A stretch of 64,000 nt of DNA from Planctomycetota bacterium (lineage in GTDB: Bacteria; Planctomycetota; UBA11346). Each line of letters opens with the position of its first letter. The stretch's first letter is position 1. The notes below the pieces were generated by a model. The model was not told where the DNA came from and did not search any database. It was given only the letters and a program-made list of their open reading frames with translations. Of the stretch, positions 8,267 to 36,995 are shown one piece after another. The stretch spans positions 14,969 through 78,968 of the forward strand of contig JAFLCQ010000002.1 of assembly GCA_017302815.1 (NCBI GenBank). The letters are read 5' to 3'. The translations under genes were made by a program, and so were the position numbers.

Positions 8267-8299
8267 GCGGCACCAACCGTGCACGACCGAATATAATTG

Positions 8300-13000: not shown

Positions 13001-13945
13001 GTACTTCGACACGCCCTGCGCCGCGTCGCCGGCGCGTGCCGGATGCTGCTGGTCGAAGCCGCAGGTCAGGCCGTGGCTTTCGTGCCAGGCGAAGAATGGC
13101 TTGAACAGCGACGTCTCGACCAGCTCGGCACGCAGGCGGTGGGCGCGGATGCGTACATCCTGGGAGCGCGCGTCCTCGCCCTCGAACAGGCGCCAGATCT
13201 CGGGCAGCAGATCCTCGCCCCAGCGTGCGCGATATGCGGCGGCGAAGCGTTCGCCCCACAGCGGCATGCTCGGCAATTCATCCTGGAAGCTGCCGACGAT
13301 CACGCTGCCGAGATAGGCTCCGGCGCGACGGGCGAACTCACCATGGATGGCATCGAGCAACGCGGCGCAGGCCGCGGGCTCGTCGTAGGCGAAGCCGCCG
13401 ACGACGCTGTAGACCAGCTGCAGGCGGCCAGCGGCCGGCGCGATGGCGCCATGGCCCGCAAGCGCAACCGGCTCGGGCTGGGTCGTTCCGGTGCGGGTGA
13501 GGAATGCCGCCAGCGCCGTGCCGCTATTGGGAGCGTCTAGCCGGCCGCCCGACGCGACCTCGGCGTCGATGCGGCGCAGCAGGCGGGCGCTGAACTCGGG
13601 ATGGCCGGCGATCAGGCGGCCCTGGACGTTGGCGCCGGAGAAGCCGATCTGATCGTAGAACCACAGGCGGAAACCACGCTCCTTGGCGTGCGCGCACACC
13701 GCGAGGAAGATCTCCCACCATGGCTCGGACATGAATGGCGGATCATCGGCGTCCTTGCCGTAGAGCGGGCCGGCCGACGCGAGATTCAGGATCACCGCCT
13801 GGCGTATGCCGCCGGCGATGAGCTGATCGAGCTGCCAGCGCAGACGATCGATCTCCAGCCGTTCACCGCTCCACCACCAGATCGGGCAGGGCGTGAACTC
13901 GGCTGCGGGGGCATCGAAACGGGCGACGAGGTCGGCGATGGGCAT
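10043..13945 (-). CDS. Large glycoside hydrolase (1300 aa) with a GH106-like N-terminal signature and a C-terminal GH2-type galactose-binding-like domain
   Basis: Track ORF. The N-terminus FDAPAAEFTPCPIWWWSGERLEIDRLRWQLDQLIAGGIRQAVI matches the F..P..E(F/Y).P.P.W.W.G pattern of GH106-like rhamnosidase-family proteins. The C-terminal domain (RVSVNGVEVGARFCGPWHFTV...NRIEVVVANT) is jelly-roll-like. The family assignment is tentative. Confidence 0.65.
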   Translation of the reverse strand: MPIADLVARFDAPAAEFTPCPIWWWSGERLEIDRLRWQLDQLIAGGIRQAVILNLASAGPLYGKDADDPPFMSEPWWEIFLAVCAHAKERGFRLWFYDQIGFSGANVQGRLIAGHPEFSARLLRRIDAEVASGGRLDAPNSGTALAAFLTRTGTTQPEPVALAGHGAIAPAAGRLQLVYSVVGGFAYDEPAACAALLDAIHGEFARRAGAYLGSVIVGSFQDELPSMPLWGERFAAAYRARWGEDLLPEIWRLFEGEDARSQDVRIRAHRLRAELVETSLFKPFFAWHESHGLTCGFDQQHPARAGDAAQGVSKYADYLSTHRWYGAPGSDHHGDASVHRSLADVLGRPRVWIEAFHSSGWGGTLEETFDWLMPWLRAGANLYNPHAVYYSTRGGWWEWAAPSTCWRQPYWREHPLFAAAVARCQALLTTGEHRCEIGVAYPSLAAQGFVGWDGPMPPADQSAEEFRLVTGVMNWGWPEAGACDRAGLDFHVLAEFMWDDARIVDGRLVSGPHRLHTVVLPGCRLLSAAAARALAALVAAGGTVLVLGTAPERIVDGPQDDLERLRRHWRITDQAGLVAELRRSPVAIRCEFPVHHRQSGDTHAVLVTAALRNGTIMPTGLGGHRRVWNDYSYGFDPAVYCRSIELTVEQPGLRPWLWCPVSGGRRPAAVRHDAGRTTITVDFSSGPMLWVVWDETAPAPAAASVRALRDVAALDDGWRGRAMQTIDNRHGDLALPAGEPIRAQTWDFEHIQGSGTPDPLSPQWAIARPATATFGPYTWLLEKADPDWAPAERWPHGIPVETQHRWRTRQWSLSRGILRDEVQVPTLGVSGHVPEDFIAIGEMRTGQTVELLWWLHREAASDRRLVVTGTGVKRIRIAGVVQEAVDDGFRNAWNVHIPAGTVPVQIRLTAVEDGPVRLSWCLLTAEPARPWPCWIAAPAPNQRDRTVHFTRRVTLAQPADAVFNIQAVGQLVLRVDGTEIGRQGGFTPYTDANVFSVVHHRLAGLSPGPHTIEVVMTEGSAPARFILDARLGTQCLISDAAWMVEVAGDVTRPRLWHAVHSPWYGMHHDPGYEVLERRPHPLPRSAWLEGDHGGVVEDAVPDLWPGERHDELWFRWRLPPGVRQVRLPAAGTVRLWLDGRPAEVSAGVAQVDGAPQWAVAAIRPQRGRFDGAAWDGPITYELGEGAISLGDWTRLGLANHSGTVTYVRDVELAEAQAHAVLDLGRVRGTARVSVNGVEVGARFCGPWHFTVGPQLRPGRNRIEVVVANTLAPYLRGHSPTNYAQVCQLQSGLFGPVRLQA

Positions 13946-13978: not shown

Positions 13979-15397
13979 TCAGCACACCGCGTGGTGCTCA
14001 ATGCCCAGGATGTCCGCCAGCCGGCCGATCGCCGCCGCATGGTGGCCCGTGCCGATGGCGCAGTGGTGGGCCGGGCCGCCGGCGCTCCACGCCTCGACGA
14101 AGTCCTCGGGCGACAGGCTGAAGCGGTAGCGGCTGTTGGTGTTGCCGATCGCCAGGGTCGGGCCATCGACCGCTTCGGCCTGCGCGGTCTGCAGGACGGT
14201 GCGGCCACCGGGGCGCTGCACCACCGACAGCACGGTGACCGGACCGCGCCGCACCGACATGCCGATCGACAGGCCTTTGCCGGGCTTGCCGTGGTAGACC
14301 GGCAGCGGCACCAGACGCACCGGGCCATCGGCCAGCGCTGGATGCCCGGGACCGTCGTGGCCGAGCAGCACCACGCCGTCATCGCAGTCGAGGCCATAGT
14401 ACTCGCTGAACGATCCGCCCTCGGCGATGAGCTGCATGATCAGCATGGCGGTGGCGTTCTTCACCTCGTACTCGCCGGCGCACGGCACGCCGCGTCCGGT
14501 CAGCAGGGTCATGCCCGGGATCAGCGAGGTCACCAGATCGCGGTCGCCGCCGGCATCGCGGCCCTCGTAGTAGTAGGCCATCGCATCGAAGCCCTCGTCG
14601 CGCGCCAGGCGATCGAGCGCCACCGCGGTGGCCGCCGCGCGGTTCAGCTCGGGCACGCTGCACGCGGGATCGACGACGAAGGTGCGGGCGAGCTCGCTGC
14701 GCATGGCGGCGATGTCGGCCGCGGTGACGCTCGCGCGGGCGTCTTCCAGGCGGGCGAATTCGACTCCGCGATAGCGGCAGCCGAGCGCTCCGGCGAGACC
14801 GGTGACATCGGTGTGCACGTCCATCATGCCATCGTAGTAGCCGCCGAGCATGCCGATCGTCGAACGGCGCAGGCGATGCGCGGCGGCCGCCGCCGCGCTC
14901 CACTCACGCAGCCGACGGATCGAGCGCTCGTCGCCGATGTGCCCGGCGACCATGCGCAGCTTGATGCCGGTGCGCGAGAACACGTTGGCCACCTCAGGCG
15001 CGGAGCAGGCCTGGCAGTAGGCCAGCCACTCGCCGGTCATCGCGCCGCGATCACCCAAGGCGTTGATCCCCGGGATGTCCATCTTCGCGCTCGGCTGCAG
15101 CGCGGCGACGACCACCGGCATCGGCAGGTCGGCGACCAGGCGATGGATGACGCCGCTGAGCGCGTAGGTCGACAGCCACAGCACCAGCATGCGGCAGTCC
15201 TCGCGTCGGGCGCGATCAGCGGCGGCGTGTGCGGCGGCGACCGAGTCGACCAGCCCGAGATCGACGATGCGCACATCATCCGAGCCCAGCTTGCCGGCGA
15301 GGTCGGTCTGGCAGTGCACCAGGCGATCGCGCAGGCCGGCGAATTGCGGCCAGTAGGTATCGAGGCCGACTCCGGCGAGGGCTATGGCTGTAGTCAT
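13979..15397 (-). CDS. L-arabinose isomerase / L-fucose isomerase family protein
   Basis: Track ORF 13979..15442. The start is chosen at MTTAIALAGVG, with an AGGAG 6 nt upstream on the coding strand. The C-terminal GGPAHHCAIGTGHH region resembles the AraA GGAHHT block. The length (about 472 aa) and an MLGGYYDGMMD segment are consistent with the AraA-like family. It sits 34 bp upstream of the large GH, so an operon is likely. Confidence 0.65.
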   Translation of the reverse strand: MTTAIALAGVGLDTYWPQFAGLRDRLVHCQTDLAGKLGSDDVRIVDLGLVDSVAAAHAAADRARREDCRMLVLWLSTYALSGVIHRLVADLPMPVVVAALQPSAKMDIPGINALGDRGAMTGEWLAYCQACSAPEVANVFSRTGIKLRMVAGHIGDERSIRRLREWSAAAAAAHRLRRSTIGMLGGYYDGMMDVHTDVTGLAGALGCRYRGVEFARLEDARASVTAADIAAMRSELARTFVVDPACSVPELNRAAATAVALDRLARDEGFDAMAYYYEGRDAGGDRDLVTSLIPGMTLLTGRGVPCAGEYEVKNATAMLIMQLIAEGGSFSEYYGLDCDDGVVLLGHDGPGHPALADGPVRLVPLPVYHGKPGKGLSIGMSVRRGPVTVLSVVQRPGGRTVLQTAQAEAVDGPTLAIGNTNSRYRFSLSPEDFVEAWSAGGPAHHCAIGTGHHAAAIGRLADILGIEHHAVC

Positions 15398-15450
15398 GGC
15401 GATGCTCCTATGAGGTCGGGATCGTCGGCGATCTGCTGGCATCCTGCCGG

Positions 15451-16392
15451 TTGACCGCCACCGATCCGGCCATGATGATGCACGAATCGGCCAACATGCC
15501 TATGCCCCGCGACGACCTGTTCTGGCGCTATCTGCCGGCCGATCCCACCGCCCTCTCCTGGGGCCTAGCGGTCACCGGCGGCGGCTGGTCGCTGATCCGA
15601 CCGGGCATGCCGTATCCTCCGGTGCAGCATCCGGGAGGCCATCATTTCGACTGGAATCGCGGACGCATCCTCAACGAATACCAGCTGATCTACCTGTCGC
15701 GCGGCCACGGCCGCTTCGAGAGCCGCAGCGCCGGCGCGCACCGGATATCGGCTGGCGACCTGATCATCCTGTTGCCTGGGGAGTGGCATCGCTACCTACC
15801 CGATCCGGCCATGGGCTGGGACGAGCACTGGGTCGCCTGCACCGGCGAGCTGCCGCAGCGCTGGCGATCGGCCGGCCTGCTCGATGCGCGGCATCCGATC
15901 CTACACGTCGGCCAGCGGCCGGACCTGCTCGCCGATTACCGCGCCATCGCCGATCTGCTCGCCCGCTGCCCACCGGGTATCGCCGGTCTCGCCGCCGCAC
16001 GCGTCGTCCAGGTGCTGGCCGCCGCCCGCTCGGCCCAGGCTGCAGCCGACGATGATCCACTCGCGGCGGCGGTGCGCACCGCCTGCGTCCGCCTTGCGGC
16101 CAATCCGCGTCGCGCACCCTCGATCACGACGCTGGCCGGGGAACTCGGCGTTCCCGAGCGCAGCCTGCGCCGGGCCTTCTCGGCGCAGACCGGCCTGCCG
16201 CCCAAACAGTGGCTGGTCGAGCTGCGTCTGGGCGAGGCCGAACGCCTGCTGTCCGCCGGATTAAGCGTCATCGACGTGGCAGGCGCCTGCGGATTCCCCA
16301 GCGTGTCGTTTTTCAGCCGACGCTTCCGTGCCCGCACCGGGGCTGCACCGGGAGCCTGGCAAACACATCACCGAGGTACTCGTAGCACGTGA
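15451..16392 (+). CDS. AraC/XylS-family transcriptional regulator (cupin N-terminal domain, C-terminal HTH)
   Basis: Track ORF. The C-terminal HTH SITTLAGELGVPERSLRRAFSAQTGLPPKQWLVELRLGEAERLL...GFPSVSFFSRRFRARTG is classic AraC. It is divergent from the isomerase-GH operon with a roughly 53-bp intergenic region. Confidence 0.75.
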   Translation: MTATDPAMMMHESANMPMPRDDLFWRYLPADPTALSWGLAVTGGGWSLIRPGMPYPPVQHPGGHHFDWNRGRILNEYQLIYLSRGHGRFESRSAGAHRISAGDLIILLPGEWHRYLPDPAMGWDEHWVACTGELPQRWRSAGLLDARHPILHVGQRPDLLADYRAIADLLARCPPGIAGLAAARVVQVLAAARSAQAAADDDPLAAAVRTACVRLAANPRRAPSITTLAGELGVPERSLRRAFSAQTGLPPKQWLVELRLGEAERLLSAGLSVIDVAGACGFPSVSFFSRRFRARTGAAPGAWQTHHRGTRST

Positions 16393-16668
16393 GGCCATGA
16401 ACGATATTCGTCAAATTTGACCGATAATTTGTTCATTCACGCGAACCAACGGGCATGTGAACGCATACGGCGCACCAATGCACCGGCTCTACCGCCATCA
16501 GCGTGCGTCCCCAAGCGACCACCGCAAACTTCCGCACTCCCCGATCAAATCCAATCCAGTTCATTGCGCGCAGCGCGGATGCATAGGATACGGCCTTGAT
16601 GCCATGAGTGCGACCTACGCCGAGCGTCACAATTATGTAACCTCGACAACAGGAAAAGACGATTCCAT

Positions 16669-17544
16669 CTACCGCTGAGATCCCCATTCCCCCCTGGATC
16701 GCCGCCGCCAAGTCGCAGGTCCACATCCCAGGCTGGATCGAAACGTTTTGCTAAATCTGCTGCGATCACTGAACCCGCAACGAAGTGCGATCGCCTCTAT
16801 TCTGTCTGTTGTGCAGCGCAGTAAGTCAGCCGCAACTGCGATTCGGCGCTGGCGAACCCAGCGCGCAGGCGAGGTACCCAAAACTGTGCGGAATCGACGC
16901 GCGAGTTCGGCGCTCGAGCAACCCGCAATCCTGGCCAAGGCGGTGACTGGCAATGGCCGACTCAGATCTCGCTCGATGATCGCAATGACGTCAGCGAGAA
17001 GCGCCTCGTCTGGAACTGAGATCAAGGTGTTTGCATCACGCACCTGCGACAGCGCATCCGAGATCGCTTCATACGCTAGGGCATATCCACGAGCCACCTG
17101 AGCCGCACCAGGTACGGTCGTCAGCGACAGCTCCCTCCCTAGCCGCATCCAAGCGTCAGACAGCGGCTGCCCAGGTCCACCGAGATGATACACTTCAGAA
17201 GCGACAACAGAGACTCGGTCACGCGGAAAATTCATCAAATCTACGGATGCATTGAGATGCCGCACTCGACCACGGCAGCGGCCACTCCAACAGAGCCAAG
17301 CAGGAATGACGTAGAGGTGTCCGGCCCGCAAGATGTTCACCCGACCACGGCAAGTTGTCTCAACCCCTTCGTCTAGATTCAGATAGATGCGCCAATATGG
17401 CGCAGTGAAGTCCAAACAGCTCCAACCGTCATCAATAGTCGTGCCGCTAAGACTGAGCAGACGAAGACGAAGCCGATCAGTCAGAGCGGCAGTAGCCCCA
17501 CCGCGAAAGATCGGAAACGACACATCCGGGAGCAGCTTTGGCAT
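16669..17544 (-). CDS. AraC-family transcriptional regulator
   Basis: Track ORF 16669..17874. The start is chosen at MPKLLPDV (ATG at 17542-17544), giving a typical 291-aa AraC size. The C-terminal HTH LPVTALARIAGCSSAELARRFRTVLGTSPARWVRQRRIAVAADLL...GFSDRSRFSKTFR is AraC-like. It is divergent from the GH29 gene. Confidence 0.7.
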   Translation of the reverse strand: MPKLLPDVSFPIFRGGATAALTDRLRLRLLSLSGTTIDDGWSCLDFTAPYWRIYLNLDEGVETTCRGRVNILRAGHLYVIPAWLCWSGRCRGRVRHLNASVDLMNFPRDRVSVVASEVYHLGGPGQPLSDAWMRLGRELSLTTVPGAAQVARGYALAYEAISDALSQVRDANTLISVPDEALLADVIAIIERDLSRPLPVTALARIAGCSSAELARRFRTVLGTSPARWVRQRRIAVAADLLRCTTDRIEAIALRCGFSDRSRFSKTFRSSLGCGPATWRRRSRGEWGSQR

Positions 17545-17598
17545 GTCTACCTGTTGCCCAAGGCTAGAATACCAAGGAAGCCAGATCAAGGAGCCGAT

Positions 17599-18948
17599 AT
17601 GCCCCTCAACCCAATCGCCCACGGCGCAGTTCCCAGTCCCGCCCAGCTGGAATGGCATCGCCGGGAAGTATACGGCTTCATCCATTTTACGGTCAACACT
17701 TTCACAGACCGCGAATGGGGATATGGCGACGAGAATGAATCCGTTTTCGCCCCGGAGGCGCTTGATTGCCGCCAATGGGTGGCAGCAGCGAAAGCTGGTG
17801 GCCTTACAGCCCTCATACTGACAGCCAAGCATCACGATGGGTTCTGCCTGTGGCCGTCCGCAACCACCACGCACACCGTCGCCAAGTCACCTTTCCGAGG
17901 CGGAAATGGAGATGTCGTACGTGAATTATCGGACGCTTGTCGTGAGGCCGGACTTGGATTCGGCCTCTATTGCTCGCCGTGGGATCGCAACAATTCCAGC
18001 TATGGACAGCAAGACTACACCGACATCTTTCATGCCCAATGGCGAGAACTGTTGACCGCGTATGGGCCTCTCTGCGAGTTGTGGTTTGACGGCGCCAATG
18101 GAGGCGATGGCTTCTACGGCGGAGCTCGAGAAAAACGCTCAATAGACAGACGTACATACTATAAATTCGAAGAACTGTGGGCAATGTGTCGACGTCTGCA
18201 GCCCGGCGCAGTCATATTCAGTGACGCCGGACCCGATGTACGCTGGTGCGGCAATGAAGCAGGGTTCGCCAATACGACCCATTGGGCCAAGGTGCGCCCA
18301 GAGGGCTTTTTCCCAGGCGACGTCGATGACCAGCGCCGACTGATCGAAGGTGATCCCGACGGTTCAGTCTGGAGACCAGCCGAAGTCGACGTCAGCATCC
18401 GCCCCGGGTGGTTCTGGCACGCCCACGAACGAGCTCATAGCGCCGAAACGCTGTTTTCCATGTGGTTTGCCAGCATAGGTCGTGGCGCTGGCATGCTACT
18501 AAATCTCACACCTGACCGCCGCGGCCTTATACCTGATTCAGACGTCGTGGAGCTCCGAAGATTCCGCGGATTAATTGAATCATTCACCGCCGTCGATCTC
18601 GCTCGCGGCCGCGGGTCCGGCCCATATGCCCCCCTTACAGACGACAACCCATCAACGTGGTGGATCGCCGACACACAGACATCGGAAGTAGTCATAGAAC
18701 TGGGACAAGATGCTCTCATTGGCGGAATCCGCATCGAAGAAATGATTGCATTGGGCCAACGCGTGGAGTCATTTGCAATTGACATTCGCGCGTGGGGCGG
18801 ATGGTTTGAATTCACTCGAGGAACCACAATCGGATCGCAGCGCATCTTCAAGCTGGATCCAGCAAGGGGAGATGCCGTACGAATTCGTATCCTAGCCAGC
18901 CAAGCACCGGCCATACTCACGGCAATAAAGGTTTACTGCGGGCATTGA
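17599..18948 (+). CDS. GH29 alpha-L-fucosidase
   Basis: Track ORF 17554..18948. The start is at MPLNPIAHG, preceded by an AAGGAG RBS at 17588-17593. GH29 signatures include AQLEWHRREVYGFIHFTVNTFTD, AKHHDGFCLWPS and CELWFDGANGG. Confidence 0.8.
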   Translation: MPLNPIAHGAVPSPAQLEWHRREVYGFIHFTVNTFTDREWGYGDENESVFAPEALDCRQWVAAAKAGGLTALILTAKHHDGFCLWPSATTTHTVAKSPFRGGNGDVVRELSDACREAGLGFGLYCSPWDRNNSSYGQQDYTDIFHAQWRELLTAYGPLCELWFDGANGGDGFYGGAREKRSIDRRTYYKFEELWAMCRRLQPGAVIFSDAGPDVRWCGNEAGFANTTHWAKVRPEGFFPGDVDDQRRLIEGDPDGSVWRPAEVDVSIRPGWFWHAHERAHSAETLFSMWFASIGRGAGMLLNLTPDRRGLIPDSDVVELRRFRGLIESFTAVDLARGRGSGPYAPLTDDNPSTWWIADTQTSEVVIELGQDALIGGIRIEEMIALGQRVESFAIDIRAWGGWFEFTRGTTIGSQRIFKLDPARGDAVRIRILASQAPAILTAIKVYCGH

Positions 18949-19257
18949 AAATATATGCATATGCGCAGATACCCGTAAAAATGGAATACCCCTTCGCCAT
19001 TGTAGTTTACTCCACACTAAAACATAAAATCCACAGAAACGCCGCAGCGCCACCTCGGGTGTCTGTTCAAGACGGCGCGCACCGTTGTTGTACAATTATT
19101 CAATTCCCGGAACACTCGACAACCAAAATACCTACGCTTCAGTAGAACATCTTCGATCCGTCGCAAATATGTAAAATACACAACATTCATTAAACCAATT
19201 TACACAGAATAGATATTCACAACGCTCCAAACAGACAGACCAACACGGCGATTCCAC

Positions 19258-19668
19258 TTAAAGTTTTATATACCACAAATATTGACCAGGTACACCCCCT
19301 TCAATACGATGCGCCACAAAGCAAACCTGCACGACCCAACCAACAACAGCAAGTAAACATAAAGGCAATACAGCAAGCCCAAACATCCACACGAGAAAAT
19401 ACAAAACAAGCGAAACAATGCCCCAAAATACATTAAAATCAAGAGCCGCCGACAAATGACTCGACAGACACACATCTTGTTTACGATCGGATTCGCGAAA
19501 CATAAAAAGCAAGACAGGGATTACATGGCCCAGCAAAGGAAACAGCAAACCAAGCAGAGTGGCGACGTGCATAGCACTCAAGCGGCCCGCCATCACCCTG
19601 TCATCACCAGGCAACATTAGAATCCCCTTGGTGATGGCCTTACCTTTATTTATTCTGCGCATTCGCAA
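19258..19668 (-). CDS. Small integral membrane protein (DUF4870-like), encoded in the AT-rich island
   Basis: Track ORF. Three hydrophobic helices flank a RESDRKQDV...HLSAAL segment. Composition is low-GC compared with the flanks. Start is uncertain. Confidence 0.4.
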   Translation of the reverse strand: MRMRRINKGKAITKGILMLPGDDRVMAGRLSAMHVATLLGLLFPLLGHVIPVLLFMFRESDRKQDVCLSSHLSAALDFNVFWGIVSLVLYFLVWMFGLAVLPLCLLAVVGWVVQVCFVAHRIEGGVPGQYLWYIKL

Positions 19669-19992
19669 TCCTGCAAAAATGAGTTATTTAACCGACGTAC
19701 ATATTCGACACAAAACATCACACACGAAAACGCCGATATCCTCACGCGCACAATGACGCTTTGATAGTTAAACAAGCATCGCATATCTCCAATGCCTATA
19801 GCCACAGTAATATTTTCTGGACTCGAGAACATATGGATGTCATTGGGAGCGCACAACTATGCCACCGCCATTACGCTTTGCCACCCCGATTGTTGATGCA
19901 CAAAACCCCATAACCGTAACCACCAGGAACACCAAATGCAGACTCATGGGACATTCACGGCCACCAGCGATAGGACACAATGAATTTCCAGA

Positions 19993-20475
19993 CTACAGGC
20001 CATGTCCACAAAATACCGACAGCGCACGCACCACCAGTGCATGATCCGCACGATCAGAATACCCGGAGACAGTCACATATCCGAAAATTCCCACATCGTG
20101 CCGTCGGAGCGGAAATCCTCCTCCACATGAAGCGTGATCAGCCTGCGCCGCTCCACGACAAGCCGGATAATCCATACCATATCGAGCACAGCGAAGATAC
20201 ACCAACAGCGAACTTATACCTGTGATTTGCATAGTGTTCTGCTTGCACCGAATCAAAGCATTGCTTTCCATTGACATTCCAGCCATCGCATGACGAAAAA
20301 GACAGCGACCATCACAGGTCACATCGGCAACAATGCCAACACCATCAGCCATTGCCAATGCGATGATATGCAATCCCAGATCCAGGGCGTCGCCATGTGT
20401 AAAATCACGAAACACCAAACGACGTTCCTGATCCTCAACCTCAAGAATTTCCGCATCGAGTTCTGATAAGTTCAA
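19993..20475 (-). CDS. UPF0303 (DUF336/GlcG-like, heme-degrading-fold) family protein, low-GC paralog
   Basis: Track ORF. Family blocks are MNLSELDAEILEVEDQERRLVFRDF, IRCKQNT and CGGGFPLRRHDVGIFGYVTVSGYSDRADHALVVRAL. It aligns along its length with the ORF at 25789..26265, which has QERVLVFPKF, RRKRNT and GGGFPIRVRGAGIVGYVVVSGLPHRDDHALVIGAL. Confidence 0.6.
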   Translation of the reverse strand: MNLSELDAEILEVEDQERRLVFRDFTHGDALDLGLHIIALAMADGVGIVADVTCDGRCLFRHAMAGMSMESNALIRCKQNTMQITGISSLLVYLRCARYGMDYPACRGAAQADHASCGGGFPLRRHDVGIFGYVTVSGYSDRADHALVVRALSVFCGHGL

Positions 20476-21182
20476 TGTGAATCCTGGTTAATATTATCGA
20501 ATGAAAAAATCACAATCTCAGAATTATTCGTTCGACAGCGATTACCACAATTGCATAATGCCATGATTAATTTCTCCAAAACAAGCAAAATTATGCCATG
20601 CGGTCAGCGCACCACAATGCGCCATCGATCACAAAACGGGTGCAATTTGTTCCACTCACGACTTCGACATCATATGCGTCCACCAGAAACCAGCCACCCT
20701 GTCATTTGTTCCAATATCCACCATAAACACTTCTTCCATCAACAACAGGTGTCGGATATCTGAAATATTGCGGCATCATATCCACCAAACACCCGTTCCA
20801 CGATCAACACGACCGGGATCGACCAGAGACACACATATAGCCACGTACTTTTGATCAATTACATTCATACGCGTGGTATTAAAAATGTTTTACACGGCAA
20901 TAACACTTATTTGAATGTTTGAAACACAAGCGCCTACCTTAGACATACTCCATCAGAAGCATTTCAAGACCACAACCATTCATCAACTACGCAAAGCGAT
21001 ATCTGGACGCCAATCTACCGATTTTAGTCCATCCGACATACGCACCAAATACGACATTGGCAATTTTCTACACTACTCATGCCCAAAACACACATGGAAA
21101 CAATTTTCCGTGTAGTTTTTCCACCATACGCTGGAAATCCAATGTAGACCATGTAAGCTTGCTCATCCATTTGGAGTCAAAC

Positions 21183-23174
21183 ATGAGTCAGCATCCATTC
21201 CTGCGTCTTGGATCAGCGTGGTACCCCGAACTCTGGGAGGAGAAGGCCATCGCCGAGGATCTGACCCGCATGACCGAACTGGGATTTAACTCGGTTCGCC
21301 TTGGCGATTTTGCCTGGTCCTGCCTTGAGCCAGAGCCAGGTCGATACGAGACTGATTGGCTGCTGCGGATCCTCGACCGCCTCCATCGCATCGGAATCGG
21401 GGCCATCATGTGCACCCCAACAGCCAGCATCCCAGCGTGGATGCTGGCCACATACCCCGAGCTCGGATTCGTCGATCGCAATGGCCACCGATTTGGAGCT
21501 GGAGGTCGACAAGCCGCCGATTACTGCAACCCCGACTTCCAACGCATGAGCCGCGGCATAACCGAGGCGATGGCAGCCGCCTTTGGCCGTCACCCGGCCG
21601 TGATTGGATGGCAAGTCGACAACGAACTCGGTGGCCATCAAAAGGTATCGGTTTCTCCTGCGGCGCTGGCCGGATGGGCACAGTGGCTGGAACGCAGATA
21701 CAGCTCGATCGCAGAACTCAACCGCGCCTGGGGCACAGACGTCTGGAGCAATCGTTACCACTCATTCGCACAGGTCCCGGGACCAGTGCCTCTACCGACC
21801 TATTGCCACAACCACTCGCTCCACACCGAGTATCGCCGCTACATGAACGATATGGCGATTGCCTTTCAGCGACAGCAAGTTGAGATCATTCGGCGCCACA
21901 GCGATGCTCCCATCACGCATAATTCTGAAGATTCCCTCGATGAATGGGATCTAACCCGTGACCTGGACCTAGCCTCACACGACTGCTATGCCCGTTATAT
22001 GCCTTTGCCGTCCATAATTCACCGGATGGATTGCATACGATCGCTCAAGCCGGGCCGCCGTTTCTGGGTGATGGAAACCGACGCAGAGGGCGCGATCGAT
22101 GGTCAACTGTTCCCCAACGGCTGGACGGCGAATTTCGCCATGCTGGCCTATACCTCTGGCGCCGAAGGTGTGTCCTACTGGCCGTGGCGAAATCTGCGCA
22201 CGGGATCCGAGATTTGCGGGCATGACGGACTGCTCTACGCCTGCGGACGCCCGACCACGGGATTTGAACCCGCCAAGGGCGTATCTGAACTGCGACGGAA
22301 ACTCGACTGTCTCCTGCAGCGATTTTCGCCGGCGCCAGCGCCAGTGGCATGTATCCGTTCTGAGCGCAACGGCCACTTCAATTACATTGAGCGCATTGCC
22401 GGCCTGCGCCCCAACTTTGATTATCGGGCCAGCCTTGAGGCTCATCACCACGATGTGGCAGAACTTGGGGCTTGGCGTGACGTGCTCTACGATCAGGCCG
22501 AACTCACCAGCCAGCGAGTAGTCATGTCGCCATACCTGCCGTACACCTCGCCAGACTTTCTCGCGCGGATGCGCGCGCACCTCGATGCAGGCGGTACCTG
22601 GGTCGTCGGCCCCTACACCGGCTATTTGACTGCACACCACACCAACCATACCACCGCCCTACTCGGCGAGCTGGAATCGATGCTTGGACTCGAGACGCGC
22701 TGCTTTGTTCCGATCACCAGTGTGCCTCTGGTGATGGCGGATGGCCTGGAGACCGAAGCGCTCATGCACGCCATGGCCTTCACCCCACGGCCCGGGGACG
22801 AACCGCTGGCCACCTACGGTGGCGATCGCATCGCCGGTTGGTGCTGGGGCATACGCCGTCATATCGGGCGCGGTTCAGTATACGTCCTGGGAAGCGAGAT
22901 CGGCAAGACAGCGCGACGCACACTCTTCAGATCGATCTTGATCCGAGCGGGCGTGCCGCTCCATCCCATGCCATGCCGCGTGATTCGAGTTCCGCAGCAG
23001 GATGCCCAGGGCCGGAACGCCTGGGCTCTGGTCAACGCAAACCGTACTCCGGTTCGCATCGAACTTCCCGCCTCGGGAACAGATGAACTAACCGGTGCTC
23101 GTGTCGGACGTCAGTTGGATCTCGCGGGCAATTGCAATGCCTTTGTGGTCTTCGACCAGCCCATCCAAGGCTGA
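21183..23174 (+). CDS. GH42-family beta-galactosidase
   Basis: Track ORF 21057..23174. The start is at MSQHPFLRLGSAWYPELW, with GGAG 8 nt upstream. GH42 blocks include NSVRLGDFAWSCLEPEPGRY, ADYCNPDF and GWQVDNELGG. The stop TGA at 23172-23174 lies inside the IS target duplication. Confidence 0.8.
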   Translation: MSQHPFLRLGSAWYPELWEEKAIAEDLTRMTELGFNSVRLGDFAWSCLEPEPGRYETDWLLRILDRLHRIGIGAIMCTPTASIPAWMLATYPELGFVDRNGHRFGAGGRQAADYCNPDFQRMSRGITEAMAAAFGRHPAVIGWQVDNELGGHQKVSVSPAALAGWAQWLERRYSSIAELNRAWGTDVWSNRYHSFAQVPGPVPLPTYCHNHSLHTEYRRYMNDMAIAFQRQQVEIIRRHSDAPITHNSEDSLDEWDLTRDLDLASHDCYARYMPLPSIIHRMDCIRSLKPGRRFWVMETDAEGAIDGQLFPNGWTANFAMLAYTSGAEGVSYWPWRNLRTGSEICGHDGLLYACGRPTTGFEPAKGVSELRRKLDCLLQRFSPAPAPVACIRSERNGHFNYIERIAGLRPNFDYRASLEAHHHDVAELGAWRDVLYDQAELTSQRVVMSPYLPYTSPDFLARMRAHLDAGGTWVVGPYTGYLTAHHTNHTTALLGELESMLGLETRCFVPITSVPLVMADGLETEALMHAMAFTPRPGDEPLATYGGDRIAGWCWGIRRHIGRGSVYVLGSEIGKTARRTLFRSILIRAGVPLHPMPCRVIRVPQQDAQGRNAWALVNANRTPVRIELPASGTDELTGARVGRQLDLAGNCNAFVVFDQPIQG

Positions 23175-23176
23175 TC
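23169..23176. repeat. Left copy of the 8-bp target-site duplication GGCTGATC of the IS66 element
   Basis: Identical 8-mers sit immediately outside both IS termini. This copy contains the GH42 stop codon (ggcTGAtc). Confidence 0.85.
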
Positions 23177-23279
23177 GTATCCACTTATCCAAGCCGTGCG
23201 CCTCGCCTGACCACCTGATGGGAGTCATCCCGACTGCCGAAAATGTGGGCTGCCGAAAATTGGACAGTGGCGGTCGAGA

Positions 23280-24872
23280 TCAGGCGGTGCGCTTGGCCTG
23301 GTGACGCTGGGCGTAGGCGGCCGGCGTCAGGTCGAGCGGATCGGTGTCTCCGGCAACGAGGGCAGGCATGATGTCGGTGAGGTAGGTGATGGGTTCGATG
23401 CGCTGGAGCCGGCAGGATTGAAAGATGGAGAACAGGGTGGCCGCCCAGGCTCCGCCGTCTTCACTGGCGACGAAGAGCCAGCCCTTCCGTCCGACAGCGA
23501 TGGGACGCTGTTGGCGTTCGGCGGCGTTGTTGTCGAGCGGTAGTCGCCCGTCGTTGACGAAGCGGGTGAGGGCTGCCCAGTGGTTGCGCAGGTACTGGGC
23601 ACCCTTTGCCACCGGCGACTCGCTGGGTTCGGTGGCGAGAATGCGACCGGTCCTCGCGTGGATGGCCGCCAGCAGCACAGGGGCCTCCTGCTGGCGTAGC
23701 GCGGTGCGCACACGGACTGGATCACGATGCAGCGCCTGGGCGACGATGGCGGCCACGCGATCAATGCGATAGAGCGCCTGGATCAGCTCCAGCTGCGGTC
23801 GGGCGGCGGGGGCATCATCGAGCCGTTCGTGGAAGGGCCGCCGGGCATGCGCCCAGCAGCCGACCTCGGTGGCTGTGCCTCCGCCCGGGGTGAAGAGATG
23901 GTCGTGTCCACCGTAGGCGTCGGCGACGATGTAGCCGCGATAATCACGCAGGAGATCGCCGGGCCAGTGCCCGGCACGCGAGGCGGTGAAGTCGAAGAAG
24001 ACCTGATCGGCGGCGGTATAGCACCAGATGCGGGCGATGCGGCAGGATCCTCGTCGGTTGGCGTGATCGAGCTGCCGGATCGGGGTGTCGTCCAGATGCA
24101 GGATGGGCTGATCCAGGATCTGCTGCCGGATCGCACCGGCCACGGGGTCCAGCCGCCGGCTCAGATGGCCCATCCACGAGCAGGCCGTCGCCGTGCTGAG
24201 ATCGACGCCCTGCCGCAGCCAGTCCTGGCGCTGCCGGTGCAGCGGCAGGCCGAGGGCGTACTTCTGGTGGGCGATGTGCAGCACCAGGCGGTCGCCGCCC
24301 AGGCCGCGCGGGACGATGGCGGGCGGGATGGGAGCGGTCAGCACCGGCTCGCGGGTGTCGCGGCGGCCATAGCGGGTGCGGATGGTGACGTGGCGGACGA
24401 AGCGGCCCTGCACCCAATCCAGGCGGACCGAGCGCTCGACGCCTACCGGCACCAGTGGCGTGCCGTCATGGTCGACGCAGGCCGACGCCGGCAGCTCGAC
24501 GCGCTCCTCCACCGTCTCCAGGTGCTCGGGCAGGGTCAGCCGGCCGCGACCACGCGGCGAGCGCCGCCGCGGGACATGCGCTGGCGAGGGCGAGGACCCA
24601 TGGTCATCCGGCAGCGCGGCTCCGACCGCCTGGGCATGCACCCGGAGCCGGTCGATGGCCGCCACGAGTTCGGGAATGGGCTGCTGCCCCGGTGCTGGGA
24701 TGAGCGCTTCCGACTGCGGCGCGACCACCCGACGGACCATGCGTCGCAACTGCCCGTCCAGCGCGACCACCTTGGCGCGTAGCGCCTGGTTCTCCTGGAC
24801 GAGCGCCCGGTTGGTCGCCTCCAACGCGGCGATCCGTTCCATCAGCATCGCCAGGGTCGGCGCGTCGCTCAC
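23280..24872 (-). CDS. IS66-family transposase (orf3, TnpC)
   Basis: The 530-aa ORF has IS66 TnpC hallmarks: HLDDTPIRQLD, CWAHARRPFHE, LDNNAAERQQRPIAVGRKGWLF, and an N-terminal coiled-coil or leucine-zipper-like segment (IAALEATNRALVQENQALRAKVVALDGQL). Confidence 0.9.
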   Translation of the reverse strand: MSDAPTLAMLMERIAALEATNRALVQENQALRAKVVALDGQLRRMVRRVVAPQSEALIPAPGQQPIPELVAAIDRLRVHAQAVGAALPDDHGSSPSPAHVPRRRSPRGRGRLTLPEHLETVEERVELPASACVDHDGTPLVPVGVERSVRLDWVQGRFVRHVTIRTRYGRRDTREPVLTAPIPPAIVPRGLGGDRLVLHIAHQKYALGLPLHRQRQDWLRQGVDLSTATACSWMGHLSRRLDPVAGAIRQQILDQPILHLDDTPIRQLDHANRRGSCRIARIWCYTAADQVFFDFTASRAGHWPGDLLRDYRGYIVADAYGGHDHLFTPGGGTATEVGCWAHARRPFHERLDDAPAARPQLELIQALYRIDRVAAIVAQALHRDPVRVRTALRQQEAPVLLAAIHARTGRILATEPSESPVAKGAQYLRNHWAALTRFVNDGRLPLDNNAAERQQRPIAVGRKGWLFVASEDGGAWAATLFSIFQSCRLQRIEPITYLTDIMPALVAGDTDPLDLTPAAYAQRHQAKRTA

Positions 24873-24878
24873 GCCCTC

Positions 24879-25235
24879 CTATGACGCAGATCCTGTTCCG
24901 CCCTTACCAGGCAGTGCGCGGTGGCGCGGCAGCACCTCCTCCAGCAGCGCGACCACCTGGGCGGTGGTCAGTGGCCGTGCTCCGGTCGCGCTGGCGGTGG
25001 CCGGCAGCTGGAACCGGGATGCCTCCAGCCGCTTGGCGCACAGCCAGAATCCGGTGGGCTCCCAGACCAGCACCTTCGCGCGGGTGCGATCCTTGCCGAC
25101 GAACACGAAGACATCGCCCTGGAACGGGTCCATGCCCAGATCCACCCGCACCAGATCTGCCAGCGAGTCGTAGGCCTTCCGCATGTCGACCGGCTGCTGG
25201 CAGAGGAAGATCCGACGACGACCGAAGCTCAGCAT
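24879..25235 (-). CDS. IS66 orf2 (TnpB) protein
   Basis: The C-terminal 118 aa of track ORF 24879..25688 read MLSFGRRRIFLCQQPVDMRKAYDSLADLV...DPFQGDVFVFVGKDRTRAKVLVWEPTGFWLCAKRLEASRF. This matches the conserved IS66 Orf2 pattern PVDMRK..DGL...DPF.G..FVF.N.R....K.L.WD..GF.L..KRLE.G.F. Confidence 0.8.
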   Translation of the reverse strand: MLSFGRRRIFLCQQPVDMRKAYDSLADLVRVDLGMDPFQGDVFVFVGKDRTRAKVLVWEPTGFWLCAKRLEASRFQLPATASATGARPLTTAQVVALLEEVLPRHRALPGKGGTGSAS

Positions 25236-25666
25236 GGCTGCCCCAGGCAGGCGATCACTGACCGCAGGAGCTCGGGCGAGAAGCCGGGGCCGACCGACAC
25301 GCGCACGCCGCTGGGCAGATGGACCTCGATGGGGGATGGCGGCGGCGGTGGGGCAGCCGGGGGCGGTGATGACCGTGCCTGGTCCTCGGCTGGCGGCTGG
25401 CCGACGATGATCGCGTGGTGCTCGTCGATGGTCCCAATGGGGATCAGGTGCCCGGGACGCGTGGGCGGCGCAGACGCGCTGGCGGCAGCTGCCAACTGCC
25501 GGGCTCGTGCGCACCAGTACGTCACCATCTTGAACGAGACGCCCTTCTGCCGGGCGAACTCCGAGACGCTGAGCCGGCTCGACAGATACTCGTTCGCCAT
25601 CGCCACGCCGTCGGTGACGTTGCGGTAGCGATGGACGCCATGTCGGTGCTTCGAGTCGTCGCTCAC
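25229..25666 (-). CDS. IS66 orf1 (TnpA) protein
   Basis: The track ORF overlaps the orf2 start by 7 nt, as is typical of IS66. An HTH-like segment reads LSVSEFARQKGVSFKMVTYWCARARQL. Which Met is the true start is uncertain. Confidence 0.6.
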   Translation of the reverse strand: MSDDSKHRHGVHRYRNVTDGVAMANEYLSSRLSVSEFARQKGVSFKMVTYWCARARQLAAAASASAPPTRPGHLIPIGTIDEHHAIIVGQPPAEDQARSSPPPAAPPPPPSPIEVHLPSGVRVSVGPGFSPELLRSVIACLGQPC

Positions 25667-25737
25667 GGCCTGCCTCCGGGGCCGGCACTGTGATGGCTAT
25701 CGCGTCACAACGCTACACGGCTTGGATGAGCGGATAC

Positions 25738-25745
25738 GGCTGATC
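25738..25745. repeat. Right copy of the 8-bp target-site duplication GGCTGATC
   Basis: It lies directly after the right terminal inverted repeat that ends at 25737. Confidence 0.85.
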
Positions 25746-25788: not shown

Positions 25789-26265
25789 TCATGTCGGGAT
25801 GAACGCCCGCAGGGCGCCGATCACCAAGGCATGATCGTCCCGATGCGGCAGGCCAGATACCACCACATAGCCGACGATGCCAGCACCCCTCACGCGGATG
25901 GGGAAGCCGCCACCACCGGGAGCGTGCTCTGCGGGATCGACTCCATAGCTGGCAGCCATGTTGCTGCCAGCGCGCGCAAGGCGGAGGAAAACCTGTAGTG
26001 AACTAGTGCCTGTCAATCGCATGGTGTTACGCTTGCGGCGAATCCACGAGTCATGCTCGGATGTCGTTCCTGCCATAGCATGGTGAAATAGGCATTGCCC
26101 ACCGCATTCTATGTCGATGGCCACTCCGACTCCGCCAGCGGTTGCCAGGGCGATAATCTGCAGGCCCAGTTCGAGCGCGTCGCGCGGGGCGAATTTTGGA
26201 AACACCAGTACTCGCTCCTGCAACTCGACCTCGGCAATATCTCGGTCCAATTGGTCTAGATCCAT
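25789..26265 (-). CDS. UPF0303 (DUF336/GlcG-like) family protein, native-GC paralog
   Basis: Track ORF 25789..26325. The start is chosen at MDLDQLDRDIAEVELQERVLVF. Family blocks are RRKRNT and GGGFPIRVRGAGIVGYVVVSGLPHRDDHALVIGAL. It lies 100 bp downstream of the GH95 gene on the same strand. Its stop is 43 bp from the IS target site. Confidence 0.65.
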   Translation of the reverse strand: MDLDQLDRDIAEVELQERVLVFPKFAPRDALELGLQIIALATAGGVGVAIDIECGGQCLFHHAMAGTTSEHDSWIRRKRNTMRLTGTSSLQVFLRLARAGSNMAASYGVDPAEHAPGGGGFPIRVRGAGIVGYVVVSGLPHRDDHALVIGALRAFIPT

Positions 26266-26368
26266 GATCCCTCCAGCGGAGCCGCCATGAAATCTTGAGT
26301 CCGAGCACAGACAAGCACTCGCCACTACCCGCCATTGTGCTCCGGTCTAAATTTGCAACGGAGATTCA

Positions 26369-35167: not shown

Positions 35168-35170
35168 CCC

Positions 35171-36223: not shown

Positions 36224-36240
36224 ACCGGATCGGGAACGCC

Positions 36241-36984: not shown

Positions 36985-36995
36985 ACACACGCGGG

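Follow-up and report, generated by a model that had tools for sequence, protein, structure and literature searches.

Strand-coordinated clusters of cytosine deamination are known from kataegis, from APOBEC hypermutation of retroviruses and from bacterial deaminase toxins, and an H/L strand skew is familiar from vertebrate mitochondrial DNA. Bhagwat and colleagues are said to have described, in 2016, cytosine deamination of the strand that is exposed as lagging-strand template. Among replication-associated asymmetries, leading-strand sequence is G+T-rich, which has been attributed to deamination on the exposed lagging-strand template (PMC6263442). Mutation in bacteria is universally AT biased (PMC2936535, PMC2936526), to which AT-rich accessory or weakly selected DNA in high-GC bacteria is attributed, and the composition of core versus accessory DNA has likewise been described (PMC5303225). 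We compare with these systems an AT-rich island of 2.2 kb from an uncultured Planctomycetota bacterium (GCA_017302815.1; a metagenome-assembled genome from a photosynthetic EBPR reactor, PMC8103865), located in a stretch of 64,000 nucleotides of contig JAFLCQ010000002.1 that is called the window here and to which all positions refer.

The island occupies positions 18949 to 21182, from the stop codon of a GH29 gene to the start of a GH42 gene, and the original prediction of an AT-rich segment there was confirmed. Its GC content is 0.449, compared to 0.647 in the rest of the window, a drop of 20 points over 2.2 kb, and it has the lowest GC among all 2234-bp windows (mean, 0.639; standard deviation, 0.049). 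The right edge is sharp: GC climbs at the GH42 start from 0.41 to 0.61 over some 150 bp. On the left the transition is less steep, the final 300 bp of GH29 having a GC of 0.52, and the neighborhood from 16.3 to 23.3 kb, at 0.55 to 0.60, is also under the local background. The proposed check on compositional deviation gave a dinucleotide delta* of 168 versus 69 ± 30, the most deviant value in the window in a measure that is distorted by strand skew; the dinucleotide signatures of the AraC gene plus GH29 and of GH42 are native-like. An assembly artifact was ruled out by two independently assembled runs, in which the DNA matches at 100% identity across 15.9 kb and 5.6 kb.

To the left, an AraC-type gene at GC 0.70 (15472 to 16392) is followed by a spacer (16393 to 16668) in which GC falls from 0.70 to 0.54 to 0.59 and plus-strand A/(A+G) reaches 0.48; this spacer is the left edge of the strand-skewed domain described below. 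A 65-amino-acid open reading frame (ORF) in it (16433 to 16630, minus strand) was called in Logan and matched no family in NCBIfam. Next are an AraC-family regulator with only an HTH_18 domain in Pfam (16669 to 17544, minus strand) and a GH29 alpha-L-fucosidase with an F5/8 type C tail (17599 to 18948, plus strand; PF01120). The two AraC-type genes were considered as a second paralogue pair, and this was rejected since only their HTH domains are related. The island itself comprises five pieces: a spacer (IG1, 18949 to 19257; GC, 0.43; GC skew, −0.31) between the convergent GH29 and DUF4870 genes, the DUF4870 gene (19258 to 19662, minus strand), a second spacer (IG2, 19663 to 19992; GC, 0.46) with a skew like that of the other pieces, an HbpS-like/UPF0303 gene with a TTG start (19993 to 20475, minus strand), and a third spacer (IG3, 20476 to 21182) between the divergent HbpS-like and GH42 genes, in which AT content is highest (GC, 0.417; GC skew, −0.30). 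Base composition is the same throughout the island genes and all three spacers. The right boundary is the GH42 beta-galactosidase (21183 to 23174, plus strand; PF02449 and PF08532). Beyond it, outside the island and 2 kb from it, lies an intact IS66-family element with orfA, TnpB, and a DDE transposase (23169 to 25745, minus strand), bounded by 23-nucleotide inverted repeats and by a target duplication of 8 bp, GGCTGATC. A UPF0303/HbpS-like paralogue of normal GC (25789 to 26265, minus strand) served as the reference copy.

A small membrane protein with three transmembrane segments and a UPF0303 gene had been predicted between GH29 and GH42, and both are present. The membrane protein (134 amino acids; MBN8523830.1) matched PF09685 over residues 32 to 132 at 31.5 bits against a cutoff of 25, contains three hydrophobic segments that can be read directly in its sequence, and had no match in NCBIfam. 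It is the sole member of its cluster, a singleton without close relatives, and word-indexed protein searches with it and with the HbpS-like protein returned only the queries themselves plus matches at 40 to 43% identity. ORF length is weak evidence for a gene here, as 0.9% of the shuffling trials reached 160 codons and 4.6% reached 134 codons. The two genes are taken as real because of their profile matches and their codon periodicity (P = 0.007 for DUF4870 and P = 0.0002 for the HbpS-like gene). Both are probably still coding, under relaxed constraint.

The HbpS-like protein (160 amino acids) matched PF03928 over its full length (67.6 bits; cutoff, 25; E = 1.4e-18), and the closest solved structure is that of the yeast UPF0303 protein YBR137W (PDB 4CLC). 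Against the NCBIfam model NF002696 (cutoff, 146) it scored 115.8 bits, and the paralogue scored 164.8 bits. The ORF is intact but degenerate: 22 of the 28 columns conserved at 85% or more are kept and 6 are lost, including a W-to-L and an R-to-C change, and 18 other members of the family lose 0 to 4. With seven cysteines the protein has the highest Cys content in the family, and its GC2 is at the 75th percentile. It shares 56% amino acid and 61% nucleotide identity, without gaps, with the paralogue 5 kb away, which together with one metagenomic protein makes up its closest relatives. When 1.84 billion representatives were searched exhaustively with HMMER, only one protein exceeded 40% identity, P0005 (49% identical to the island protein and 63% to the paralogue), and a profile search of metagenome contigs with the HbpS alignment added one distant locus. 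These nearest relatives have GC contents of 0.58 to 0.70, the metagenomic gene being at 0.58. On the branch leading to the island gene, C-to-T changes numbered 21 to 29 versus 3 to 5 T-to-C changes, and C-to-G changes 11 versus 4 G-to-C changes, with G-to-A not raised and C-to-A also raised; this is rough parsimony on saturated silent sites (pS, 0.77 to 0.82 between the paralogues). The raised C-to-G and C-to-A changes are not predicted by simple deamination.

The spacers sum to 1.35 kb. The original prediction had recognized the noncoding tracts of 309 bp (IG1) and 707 bp (IG3), and these hold, but it missed the third, the 330-bp IG2. Codon periodicity was not found in any of them (P = 0.35, 0.82, and 0.93 for IG1, IG2, and IG3), and a six-frame Pfam scan with stops masked gave only two chance-level matches (E ≤ 1). 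The reality of a 46-amino-acid hydrophobic ORF in IG2 (19840 to 19980, minus strand) is doubtful; it had no family match in NCBIfam or in PHROGs, where it was among four small ORFs searched. When the island was compared with the rest of the window by blastn and by tblastx, the HbpS paralogue was the sole match, and no other residual protein similarity was found. The spacers have no homologues, so RNA was sought through family matches and through fold stability relative to shuffles. No Rfam family was found in the island in a scan of positions 16000 to 24000 at E ≤ 1, the one chance-level match, to a microRNA, lying outside it, and folds were not significant (z of −1.1 to −1.3 for both strands of IG3 and −1.0 for IG1). 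The covariance-model and BLAST checks suggested for IG1 and IG3 thus returned neither a noncoding RNA nor an insertion sequence remnant.

A large regulatory region upstream of GH42 was among the original proposals, and the spacers might be functional. They could be an extended tract of AT-rich DNA that controls the divergent promoters of GH42 and the HbpS-like gene, for example through operators of the AraC type or through binding of a nucleoid protein, or they could encode unstructured A+C-rich or G+U-rich RNA. In a bacterium 707 bp is a large distance between two divergent genes, there are two adjacent AraC-type regulators, and positions 20645 to 20790 contain a small number of direct repeats similar to ATCCACCA. 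We nevertheless regard this as very unlikely given the Rfam and folding results, since promoter- and terminator-like sites in the island region and internal repeats are at chance level, no operator-type motif is common to IG3 and the GH29/AraC promoter region, and one composition extends across the genes and all three spacers. Moreover, the spacer before the same GH42 gene in the nearest relative found, L085, is 394 bp long, has a GC of 0.63 to 0.66, and is unrelated to IG3. For a large regulatory region upstream of GH42, these negative results amount to an absence of evidence only.

A decayed mobile element or prophage remnant, also proposed for the island, would account for its AT-rich composition and for the location of small ORFs of unassigned function on just one of the strands. 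A strand rich in T and poor in C is also reminiscent of single-stranded DNA phages. The searches do not bear this out. No integrase, transposase, or replication remnants were found in the six frames of the spacers, no tRNA or tmRNA was detected by scanning, and when the island and its surroundings were searched for repeats (direct, inverted, and tandem), only the IS66 ends emerged, with no bounding repeats or attC-like hairpins. The two island genes and the four small ORFs had no match in PHROGs, blastn at distant settings had none against phages and plasmids, and IMG/VR had none to the HbpS alignment or to DUF4870. The skew also extends beyond the island into AraC and GH29. This reading is highly improbable and already close to refuted.

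The first analysis had overlooked the asymmetry between the strands. The plus strand of the island is composed of A at 0.34, C at 0.28, G at 0.16, and T at 0.21, and therefore it is the minus strand that lost C to T. All five island pieces have GC skews of −0.24 to −0.31 and AT skews of +0.13 to +0.38, with plus-strand A/(A+G) at 0.60 to 0.73 (z of 4 to 6) and T/(T+C) at 0.38 to 0.48 (z of 1 to 3). At third positions the two island genes have C at 0.14 and T at 0.41 to 0.42 (0.42 in DUF4870), compared to 0.40 to 0.54 and 0.08 to 0.18 in ordinary genes, and G is unchanged. Expressed in plus-strand terms, silent-site A/(A+G) is 0.74 to 0.75 in the island genes; in background genes it is 0.25 and 0.27 for the plus and minus strands, with T/(T+C) at 0.20 and 0.195, so the two orientations agree. 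The AraC gene on the minus strand (third positions, C at 0.25 and T at 0.29) has A/(A+G) of 0.54 versus T/(T+C) of 0.32, and GH29 on the plus strand (A3, 0.25; G3, 0.19) has 0.57 versus 0.32. Both thus carry the island's asymmetry whatever their orientation. In GH29 that asymmetry (+0.25) is outside the range of 80 homologues, and its GC3 of 0.57 compares with 0.81 predicted in those homologues from its GC1+2 of 0.568 (z of −3.2). Because silent sites in AraC and GH29 share the asymmetry, the strand-skewed domain is not the island but a segment of 4.8 kb, 16393 to 21182, sharply bounded at 16393 and 21183.

The polarity of the island skew is that of a weak window-wide background asymmetry and recurs in 12 of 14 other intergenic gaps; its magnitude, about eight times the window mean, is confined to 16393 to 21182. 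Compared with replication skew, the polarity is the same in plus-strand genes, minus-strand genes, and intergenic DNA, but magnitude and extent are not typical of a replichore. T/(T+C) shows an increase of about 0.3 whatever the 5′ or 3′ neighbor, no neighboring base stands out, and CpG is not depleted (rho, 1.16). Several specific causes were rejected. The loss of C without di- or trinucleotide context, together with the CpG value, speaks against the footprint of a context-specific cytosine deaminase or of methylation. RIP-like mutation does not fit, since only one copy is affected, the tract exceeds the duplicate, CpA context is missing, and the duplication is old. Sense-transcription-coupled bias as the sole cause is contradicted by GH29, which is on the opposite strand and has the same absolute-strand bias.

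Comparison with L085 provided the direction of change. Its GH42 is 89% identical in amino acids and 84% in nucleotides, its orthologue of the HbpS paralogue is 83.5% identical in amino acids, and synteny covers GH42 and that downstream paralogue and breaks exactly at the GH42 start. The genes upstream of GH42 on this one relative contig are unrelated to the block, and the IS66 element is absent. An AT-rich segment conserved in syntenic position, which would have spoken against recent acquisition, was thus not seen in L085, and this comparison supports the island segment as lineage specific. The L085 orthologues have GC contents of 0.70 to 0.71, compared to 0.60 to 0.67 in the window (0.70 versus 0.60 for GH42). 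With this relative and outgroups, the changes in GH42 were polarized, and 180 fell on the window lineage and 54 on that of L085. On the window lineage, GC-to-AT changes outnumber AT-to-GC changes 145 to 12; 140 of the 180 are at third positions and only 6 at second positions, and the GC loss is almost strand symmetric. Silent sites account for most of the G+C that the genes around the island have lost on this lineage.

Whether the block of AraC, GH29, DUF4870, HbpS-like gene, and spacers was acquired horizontally, with the GC and skew of a donor replicon not yet ameliorated, bears on the same data. The block is missing from L085 at the exact breakpoint, both island proteins are singletons, and an IS66 element is nearby. 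A scan of genome contigs gave 80 GH29 loci at 41 to 53% identity in many phyla, the best homologues reaching just 50 to 53%, and none of the 80 has HbpS, DUF4870, or GH42 beside GH29. A block with a history of its own would also account for the deviant dinucleotide signature of the island and for the abrupt borders at 16393 and 21183. Against this, the GH29 and HbpS-like proteins combine high-GC-type amino acid composition with low-GC silent sites, unlike the product of long residence in a donor of 45% GC; the nearest relatives of the HbpS-like gene are a neighboring paralogue and one gene at GC 0.58; and the dinucleotides of AraC plus GH29 are native. Mobility genes, a tRNA, and bounding repeats were not found, and neighboring native genes are changing in the same direction on this lineage. 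We therefore consider acquisition with donor composition unlikely. Of the horizontal origin originally proposed, what stands is a lineage-specific segment with an intact IS66 element 2 kb away; import from a low-GC donor is not supported, given the GC-normal relatives, the high-GC-type proteins, and the GC lost by GH42 on this lineage.

The silent sites of the two island genes have the composition of the spacers, and the proteins keep a high-GC amino acid makeup. The loss is mostly of minus-strand C to T (plus-strand G to A), independent of gene orientation. The reading that we favor, with a probability of roughly 0.55, is that the block is lineage-specific, weakly constrained DNA in a fucosidase/galactosidase cluster that has lost GC in place and is drifting to an AT-rich, strand-skewed equilibrium, the direction of change being polarized only for the neighbors and one paralogue, with no orthologue of the block in hand. 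The force that holds the genome at 65 to 70% GC, for which selection on codon usage or base composition and GC-biased repair linked to recombination are candidates, would act weakly on such an accessory block. Spontaneous cytosine deamination, striking the strand that spends more time single-stranded, would set an AT-rich, strand-skewed equilibrium, and the block would therefore slide toward it. The spacers would be ordinary noncoding DNA or gene debris too old to recognize.

A single replicon-wide bias may not suffice for this, since the odds ratio of the asymmetry inside 16393 to 21182 is about 2.6 to 5, compared to 1.1- to 1.9-fold in the substitution flux of neighboring genes, and GH42 is near-symmetric. 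A local cause may act on top of general decay, with the minus strand of 16393 to 21182 unusually often single-stranded or the target of a cytosine deaminase. One example would be the displaced strand of R-loops over a long minus-strand transcription unit running from just beside the GH42 start through HbpS-like and DUF4870, antisense to GH29, and through AraC. The strand-specific load of C-to-T change would in that case reflect the locality rather than a bias of the whole replicon. The sharp edges of the domain coincide with possible ends of such a unit, the bias is equal in AraC and GH29 despite their opposite orientations, and the asymmetry exceeds that of all 80 GH29 homologues next to a GH42 that decayed symmetrically. 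The minus strand is G-rich (GC skew, +0.25 to +0.31), a feature that favors R-loop stability, and the C-to-G changes raised on the HbpS-like branch are a further point in favor. However, C was lost without sequence context, whereas many deaminases have one, and promoter- and terminator-like sites are at chance level. The polarity equals that of the background, so that a special cause is not strictly required, and a single heavy burst is hard to reconcile with two ORFs that have remained open. We rate a local contribution as rather unlikely. In its stronger form, 16393 to 21182 would be the footprint of a persistently single-stranded minus strand or of a deaminase, with R-loops or a strand-displacement intermediate as candidates. 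We rate this as quite unlikely. No deaminase gene was seen in the window. Such a footprint, fixed over evolutionary time and spanning genes on both strands, would be the equivalent in a bacterial chromosome of strand-coordinated deamination clusters.

Under in-place decay, an AT-rich island within a high-GC genome does not have to be of foreign origin. The high-GC signature of the proteins and the loss of GC by neighbors on this lineage indicate that low GC here marks relaxed constraint in place, and island finding based on GC only would mislabel the region as a transfer event. Such segments would be natural readouts of the mutation spectrum in uncultured high-GC bacteria, beyond the reach of mutation-accumulation experiments. 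The present one suggests a mutational equilibrium at about 42 to 46% GC with several-fold more C-to-T change on one strand. Should the additional strand bias prove local, it would point to a chromosomal site of chronic single-strandedness.

Among known systems, AT-rich accessory DNA in high-GC bacteria (PMC2936535, PMC2936526, PMC5303225) shares with this locus the dominance of GC-to-AT change under weak constraint, silent sites and spacers far under genomic GC, and lineage specificity. Here, in addition, the direction is demonstrated (145 versus 12 in GH42), the drop is 20 points, and the change is nearly confined to one strand. Replication-associated skew has the polarity of the window-wide asymmetry, its independence of gene orientation, and its freedom from sequence context. 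However, the GC skew of about 0.3 and AT skew of up to 0.4 seen here are far higher, and they occupy a 4.8-kb domain with sharp edges beside a GH42 gene that decayed symmetrically. The classical genomic island resembles this one in deviant composition, absence from the syntenic position in the nearest relative, and a nearby insertion sequence, but no integrase, tRNA, or flanking repeats were found here, the proteins are host-like with a high-GC amino acid makeup, and the nearest homologue of one gene is a neighboring paralogue. Within the UPF0303/HbpS-like family of heme-degrading domains (PF03928 and NF002696; YBR137W, PDB 4CLC), the island gene has a full-length match and that paralogue nearby, but family-conserved W, R, and L residues are missing from it. 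Deaminase clusters and the mitochondrial H/L skew share with the domain one strand that is depleted in C and enriched in T over kilobases, and the base composition of the island plus strand is similar to that of the vertebrate mitochondrial L strand. Unlike deaminase clusters, the domain has no TC, CC, or GC context, its ORFs are open, and other substitution types occur too, which fits slow change rather than one burst.

The sharp GC drop that had been predicted between the GH29 stop (18948) and the GH42 start (21183) was borne out. The island between them (18949-21182) has a GC content of 0.449 compared with 0.647 for the remaining window, the lowest value among all 2234-bp windows (mean 0.639, standard deviation 0.049). 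Pfam, NCBIfam, and the closest solved structure, which for the HbpS-like gene is the yeast UPF0303 protein YBR137W, also confirmed the genes called in it and the GH29 and GH42 genes on its flanks. The island consists of spacer IG1 (18949-19257; GC, 0.43), a DUF4870 gene (19258-19662, minus strand; GC, 0.45), spacer IG2 (19663-19992; GC, 0.46), an HbpS-like/UPF0303 gene (19993-20475, minus strand; GC, 0.50), and spacer IG3 (20476-21182; GC, 0.42). Both genes showed codon periodicity (P = 0.007 and 0.0002), which together with the family matches indicates that they are real coding sequences. The spacers did not (P = 0.35, 0.82, and 0.93) and are noncoding, or debris past recognition. A 46-amino-acid open reading frame (ORF) at 19840-19980 (minus strand), with one hydrophobic segment, starts 13 nucleotides past the HbpS-like stop codon; a search for a family match returned none, and it is probably no gene, since a T-rich strand gives such ORFs by chance. 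The source is a Planctomycetota metagenome-assembled genome from a photosynthetic phosphorus-removal bioreactor (PMC8103865). The island DNA is 100% identical between two sequencing runs assembled separately and is therefore no assembly artifact.

The original prediction had considered a decayed mobile element or prophage remnant, and proposed a search of the spacers for noncoding RNA or insertion sequence remnants. Nothing of either kind was recognized. Rfam at E ≤ 1 and a tRNA scan gave no match within the island, masked six-frame Pfam scans of the spacers gave only chance-level matches, and the spacers had no PHROG or NCBIfam matches. Searches for similarity to phage, plasmid, or IMG/VR contigs and for bounding repeats, tandem repeats, or attC-like hairpins came back empty, and elsewhere in the window the sole similarity was to an HbpS-like paralogue. 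With mobility hallmarks and these similarities missing, the island was rejected as a mobile element, and a prophage or mobile remnant is close to excluded. Promoter- and terminator-like sites were no more frequent than chance and RNA folds of the spacers were not significant; a functional regulatory or RNA region, which gained no positive evidence, is very unlikely.

A GH42 protein search gave an 89% identical match (P0156) encoded on L085, a 13.4-kb Logan contig (GC, 0.717) from the nearest relative found. Positions 4479-6458 of that contig correspond to window 21195-23174 (GH42, 84% nucleotide identity), 6510-7031 to 25795-26316 (HbpS paralogue, 80%), 7117-11749 to 34440-39073 (89%), and 12016-13388 to 50418-51791 (81%). 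Upstream of its GH42 are unrelated genes and a 394-bp spacer (GC, 0.63 to 0.66). The proposed check in relatives, made against this one contig, thus found the AraC-GH29-island block (16393-21182) missing at the syntenic position, with the break at the GH42 start. Downstream in L085, 45 bp separates GH42 from the convergent HbpS paralogue, and IS66 is absent. In the window, an intact IS66-family element (23169-25745, minus strand) is inserted directly at the GH42 stop codon and carries three minus-strand genes: orfA (25229-25666), TnpB (24879-25235), and one for a DDE transposase (23280-24872). Its 23-nucleotide terminal inverted repeats are 91% complementary, its 8-bp target duplication (GGCTGATC) is perfect, and its insertion is recent because the element is missing in L085. 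The layout before IS66 had two UPF0303/HbpS-like paralogues (19993-20475 and 25789-26265) on either side of GH42. The GH42 and convergent HbpS-like pair is kept in L085, and this conserved pairing suggests that the UPF0303/HbpS-like family may be functionally linked with the galactosidase/fucosidase cluster. Two window blocks are missing between syntenic genes in L085: 26317-34439, with GH95, a 1541-amino-acid GH2, a 183-amino-acid ORF, and a DUF1559/N-methyl pseudopilin, and the 11-kb 39074-50417, which includes a 1441-amino-acid ORF. The island neighborhood is a hot spot of gene gain or loss. Immediately left of the cluster are two large, high-GC ORFs, 10043-13945 (minus strand, 1300 amino acids) and 13979-15442 (minus strand, 487 amino acids), with no Pfam match at E ≤ 1e-5.

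The L085 orthologues have a GC content of 0.70 to 0.71 and their window counterparts one of 0.60 to 0.67, with differences that run strongly in one direction. All four shared segments (21183-23174, 25789-26316, 34440-39073, and 50418-51791) have a GC content in the window that is 4.5 to 11 points below that in L085; the GH42 genes, for example, differ by 78 G>A versus 10 A>G. Other window genes hold a GC of 0.70 and a GC3 of 0.84 to 0.88; AT-ward silent-site drift on the window lineage shows a patchy distribution. When GH42 differences were polarized with four outgroup GH42 genes (contigs L086, L088, L089, and L090), the window lineage received 180 changes and the L085 lineage 54. Of the 180, 145 were GC>AT and 12 AT>GC; 140 lay at third positions and only 6 at second positions, so GH42 was kept under protein-level selection as its silent sites slid. 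Its GC3 fell from ∼0.9 to 0.66, and this fall of ∼0.24 is the same size as the deficit inferred for GH29. In 80 GH29 homologues, GC1+2 predicts GC3 (r = 0.92); the window GH29 has a GC3 of 0.57 versus 0.81 predicted (z = −3.2) and a silent-site asymmetry of +0.25, beyond the range of those homologues (−0.02 ± 0.09; maximum, 0.19). It is a high-GC-type protein carried on decayed silent sites.

The island HbpS-like copy and its paralogue (25789-26265, minus strand; GC, 0.60) are 56% identical in amino acids and 61% in nucleotides, ungapped. When 1.84 billion representative proteins were searched exhaustively with HMMER, a single cluster, P0005 (49%), exceeded 40% identity to the island copy; P0005 is 63% identical to the paralogue, and the neighbor-joining tree is (island, (paralogue, P0005)). 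The island copy is equidistant from the window paralogue and its L085 orthologue (54% and 56%), and therefore the duplication predates the window/L085 split. Codon alignments placed 21 C>T versus 5 T>C, 11 C>G versus 4 G>C, and 6 G>A versus 9 A>G changes on the island branch, where non-C changes were not commoner than on other branches; a second comparison, which included the L085 orthologue, gave a similar result. The copy looks degenerate, with 6 of 28 strongly conserved columns off consensus (0 to 4 in other members) and an NF002696 score of 115.8 bits (cutoff, 146) versus 164.8 for the paralogue. It has the top cysteine content among 138 family members, and at least one cysteine (column 78) is a CGC-to-TGC change. 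Its GC2 (0.447) ranks at the family's 75th percentile, with GARP residues above the median; the amino acid composition is still of the high-GC-organism type, and long residence in a 45%-GC donor is not expected to give such a gene. The original interpretation is partly right, in that the segment is lineage-specific and missing in L085, and fails for the low GC. Import from a low-GC donor would suit that absence and the singleton status of the island genes, but the high-GC-type proteins, the HbpS-like paralogue relationship, the native AraC and GH29 dinucleotide signature, and the lack of a mobility hallmark led us to reject it as the source of the island's GC and leave it unlikely.

The island also has a strand asymmetry that had gone unnoticed. 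Its plus strand is 0.338 A, 0.285 C, 0.165 G, and 0.213 T, and all five pieces have a GC skew of −0.24 to −0.31 and an AT skew of +0.13 to +0.38. Plus-strand A/(A+G) is 0.60 to 0.73, or 4 to 6 standard deviations over background, with T/(T+C) merely 0.38 to 0.48, so C was lost and T gained on the minus strand while its G stayed nearly constant. The lost C shows no conspicuous neighboring-base context, nor is there a depletion of CpG. Ordinary window genes have equal third-position plus-strand ratios regardless of gene strand (strand effect, P = 1e-10 and 3e-6), with silent-site A/(A+G) and T/(T+C) of 0.25 and 0.20 for plus-strand genes and 0.27 and 0.195 for minus-strand genes; the window-wide background is a weak absolute-strand asymmetry. 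The same two ratios are 0.54 and 0.32 for AraC (minus), 0.57 and 0.32 for GH29 (plus), 0.75 and 0.31 for DUF4870 (minus), and 0.74 and 0.375 for the island HbpS-like copy (minus), compared with 0.37 and 0.31 for GH42 (plus) and 0.34 and 0.39 for the HbpS-like paralogue (minus). Third positions return to ordinary values in the gene (15472-16392) to the left of the block. Extra plus-strand G>A, equal to minus-strand C>T, thus delimits a domain (16393-21182) with fairly sharp edges, of which the island is the least constrained core; the bias is independent of gene orientation and extends past the island. The same polarity occurs at a second and smaller low-GC spot, 2600-3200 (GC, 0.49 to 0.50; GC skew, −0.16 to −0.25), which lies upstream of a 1177-amino-acid ORF (3329-6862, minus strand) and holds doubtful ORFs only, at 9200-10000 (AT skew, ∼+0.3; GC, 0.57) over a 235-amino-acid membrane protein gene (minus strand), and at 58001-58600 (GC skew, −0.28; AT skew, +0.2; GC, 0.60).

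We favor, at a probability of roughly 0.55, that the island's low GC arose in place on the window lineage. The GC-losing process would act on the adjoining accessory glycosidase genes as well and would attain its end point within the island, where silent sites (minus-strand C, 0.14; G, 0.28 to 0.30) agree in composition with the spacers (C, 0.154; G, 0.276). The analysis directly shows which way the neighbors changed, that the block proteins are in compositional disequilibrium, and that the bias does not depend on gene orientation; the force maintaining GC may have been relaxed at the block, and the island would share the history of its neighboring genes. Bacterial mutation is AT biased, with selection or biased repair keeping GC high (PMC2936535, PMC2936526), and accessory DNA is less protected in base composition (PMC5303225); decay in place fits both. 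By our own arithmetic, the domain asymmetry has an odds ratio of 2.6 to 5 versus 1.1- to 1.9-fold in the substitution flux of neighboring genes. The GH42 decay is nearly symmetric, and C>G and C>A are raised too on the HbpS-like island branch. A local cause of this excess, for example R-loops over a long minus-strand transcription unit or some other origin of chronic single-strandedness, is rather unlikely. Alternatively, the excess may reflect a pyrimidine ratio that reached equilibrium early, at ∼0.33, and a purine ratio still rising. The unusually clean one-strand signature offers a useful natural readout of the mutation spectrum for this high-GC planctomycete, which is uncultured. The strand bias of the domain has the polarity of the window-wide background and also that of leading-strand sequence, which is known to be enriched in G+T (PMC6263442), and the island is a further example of a kind of feature already known.
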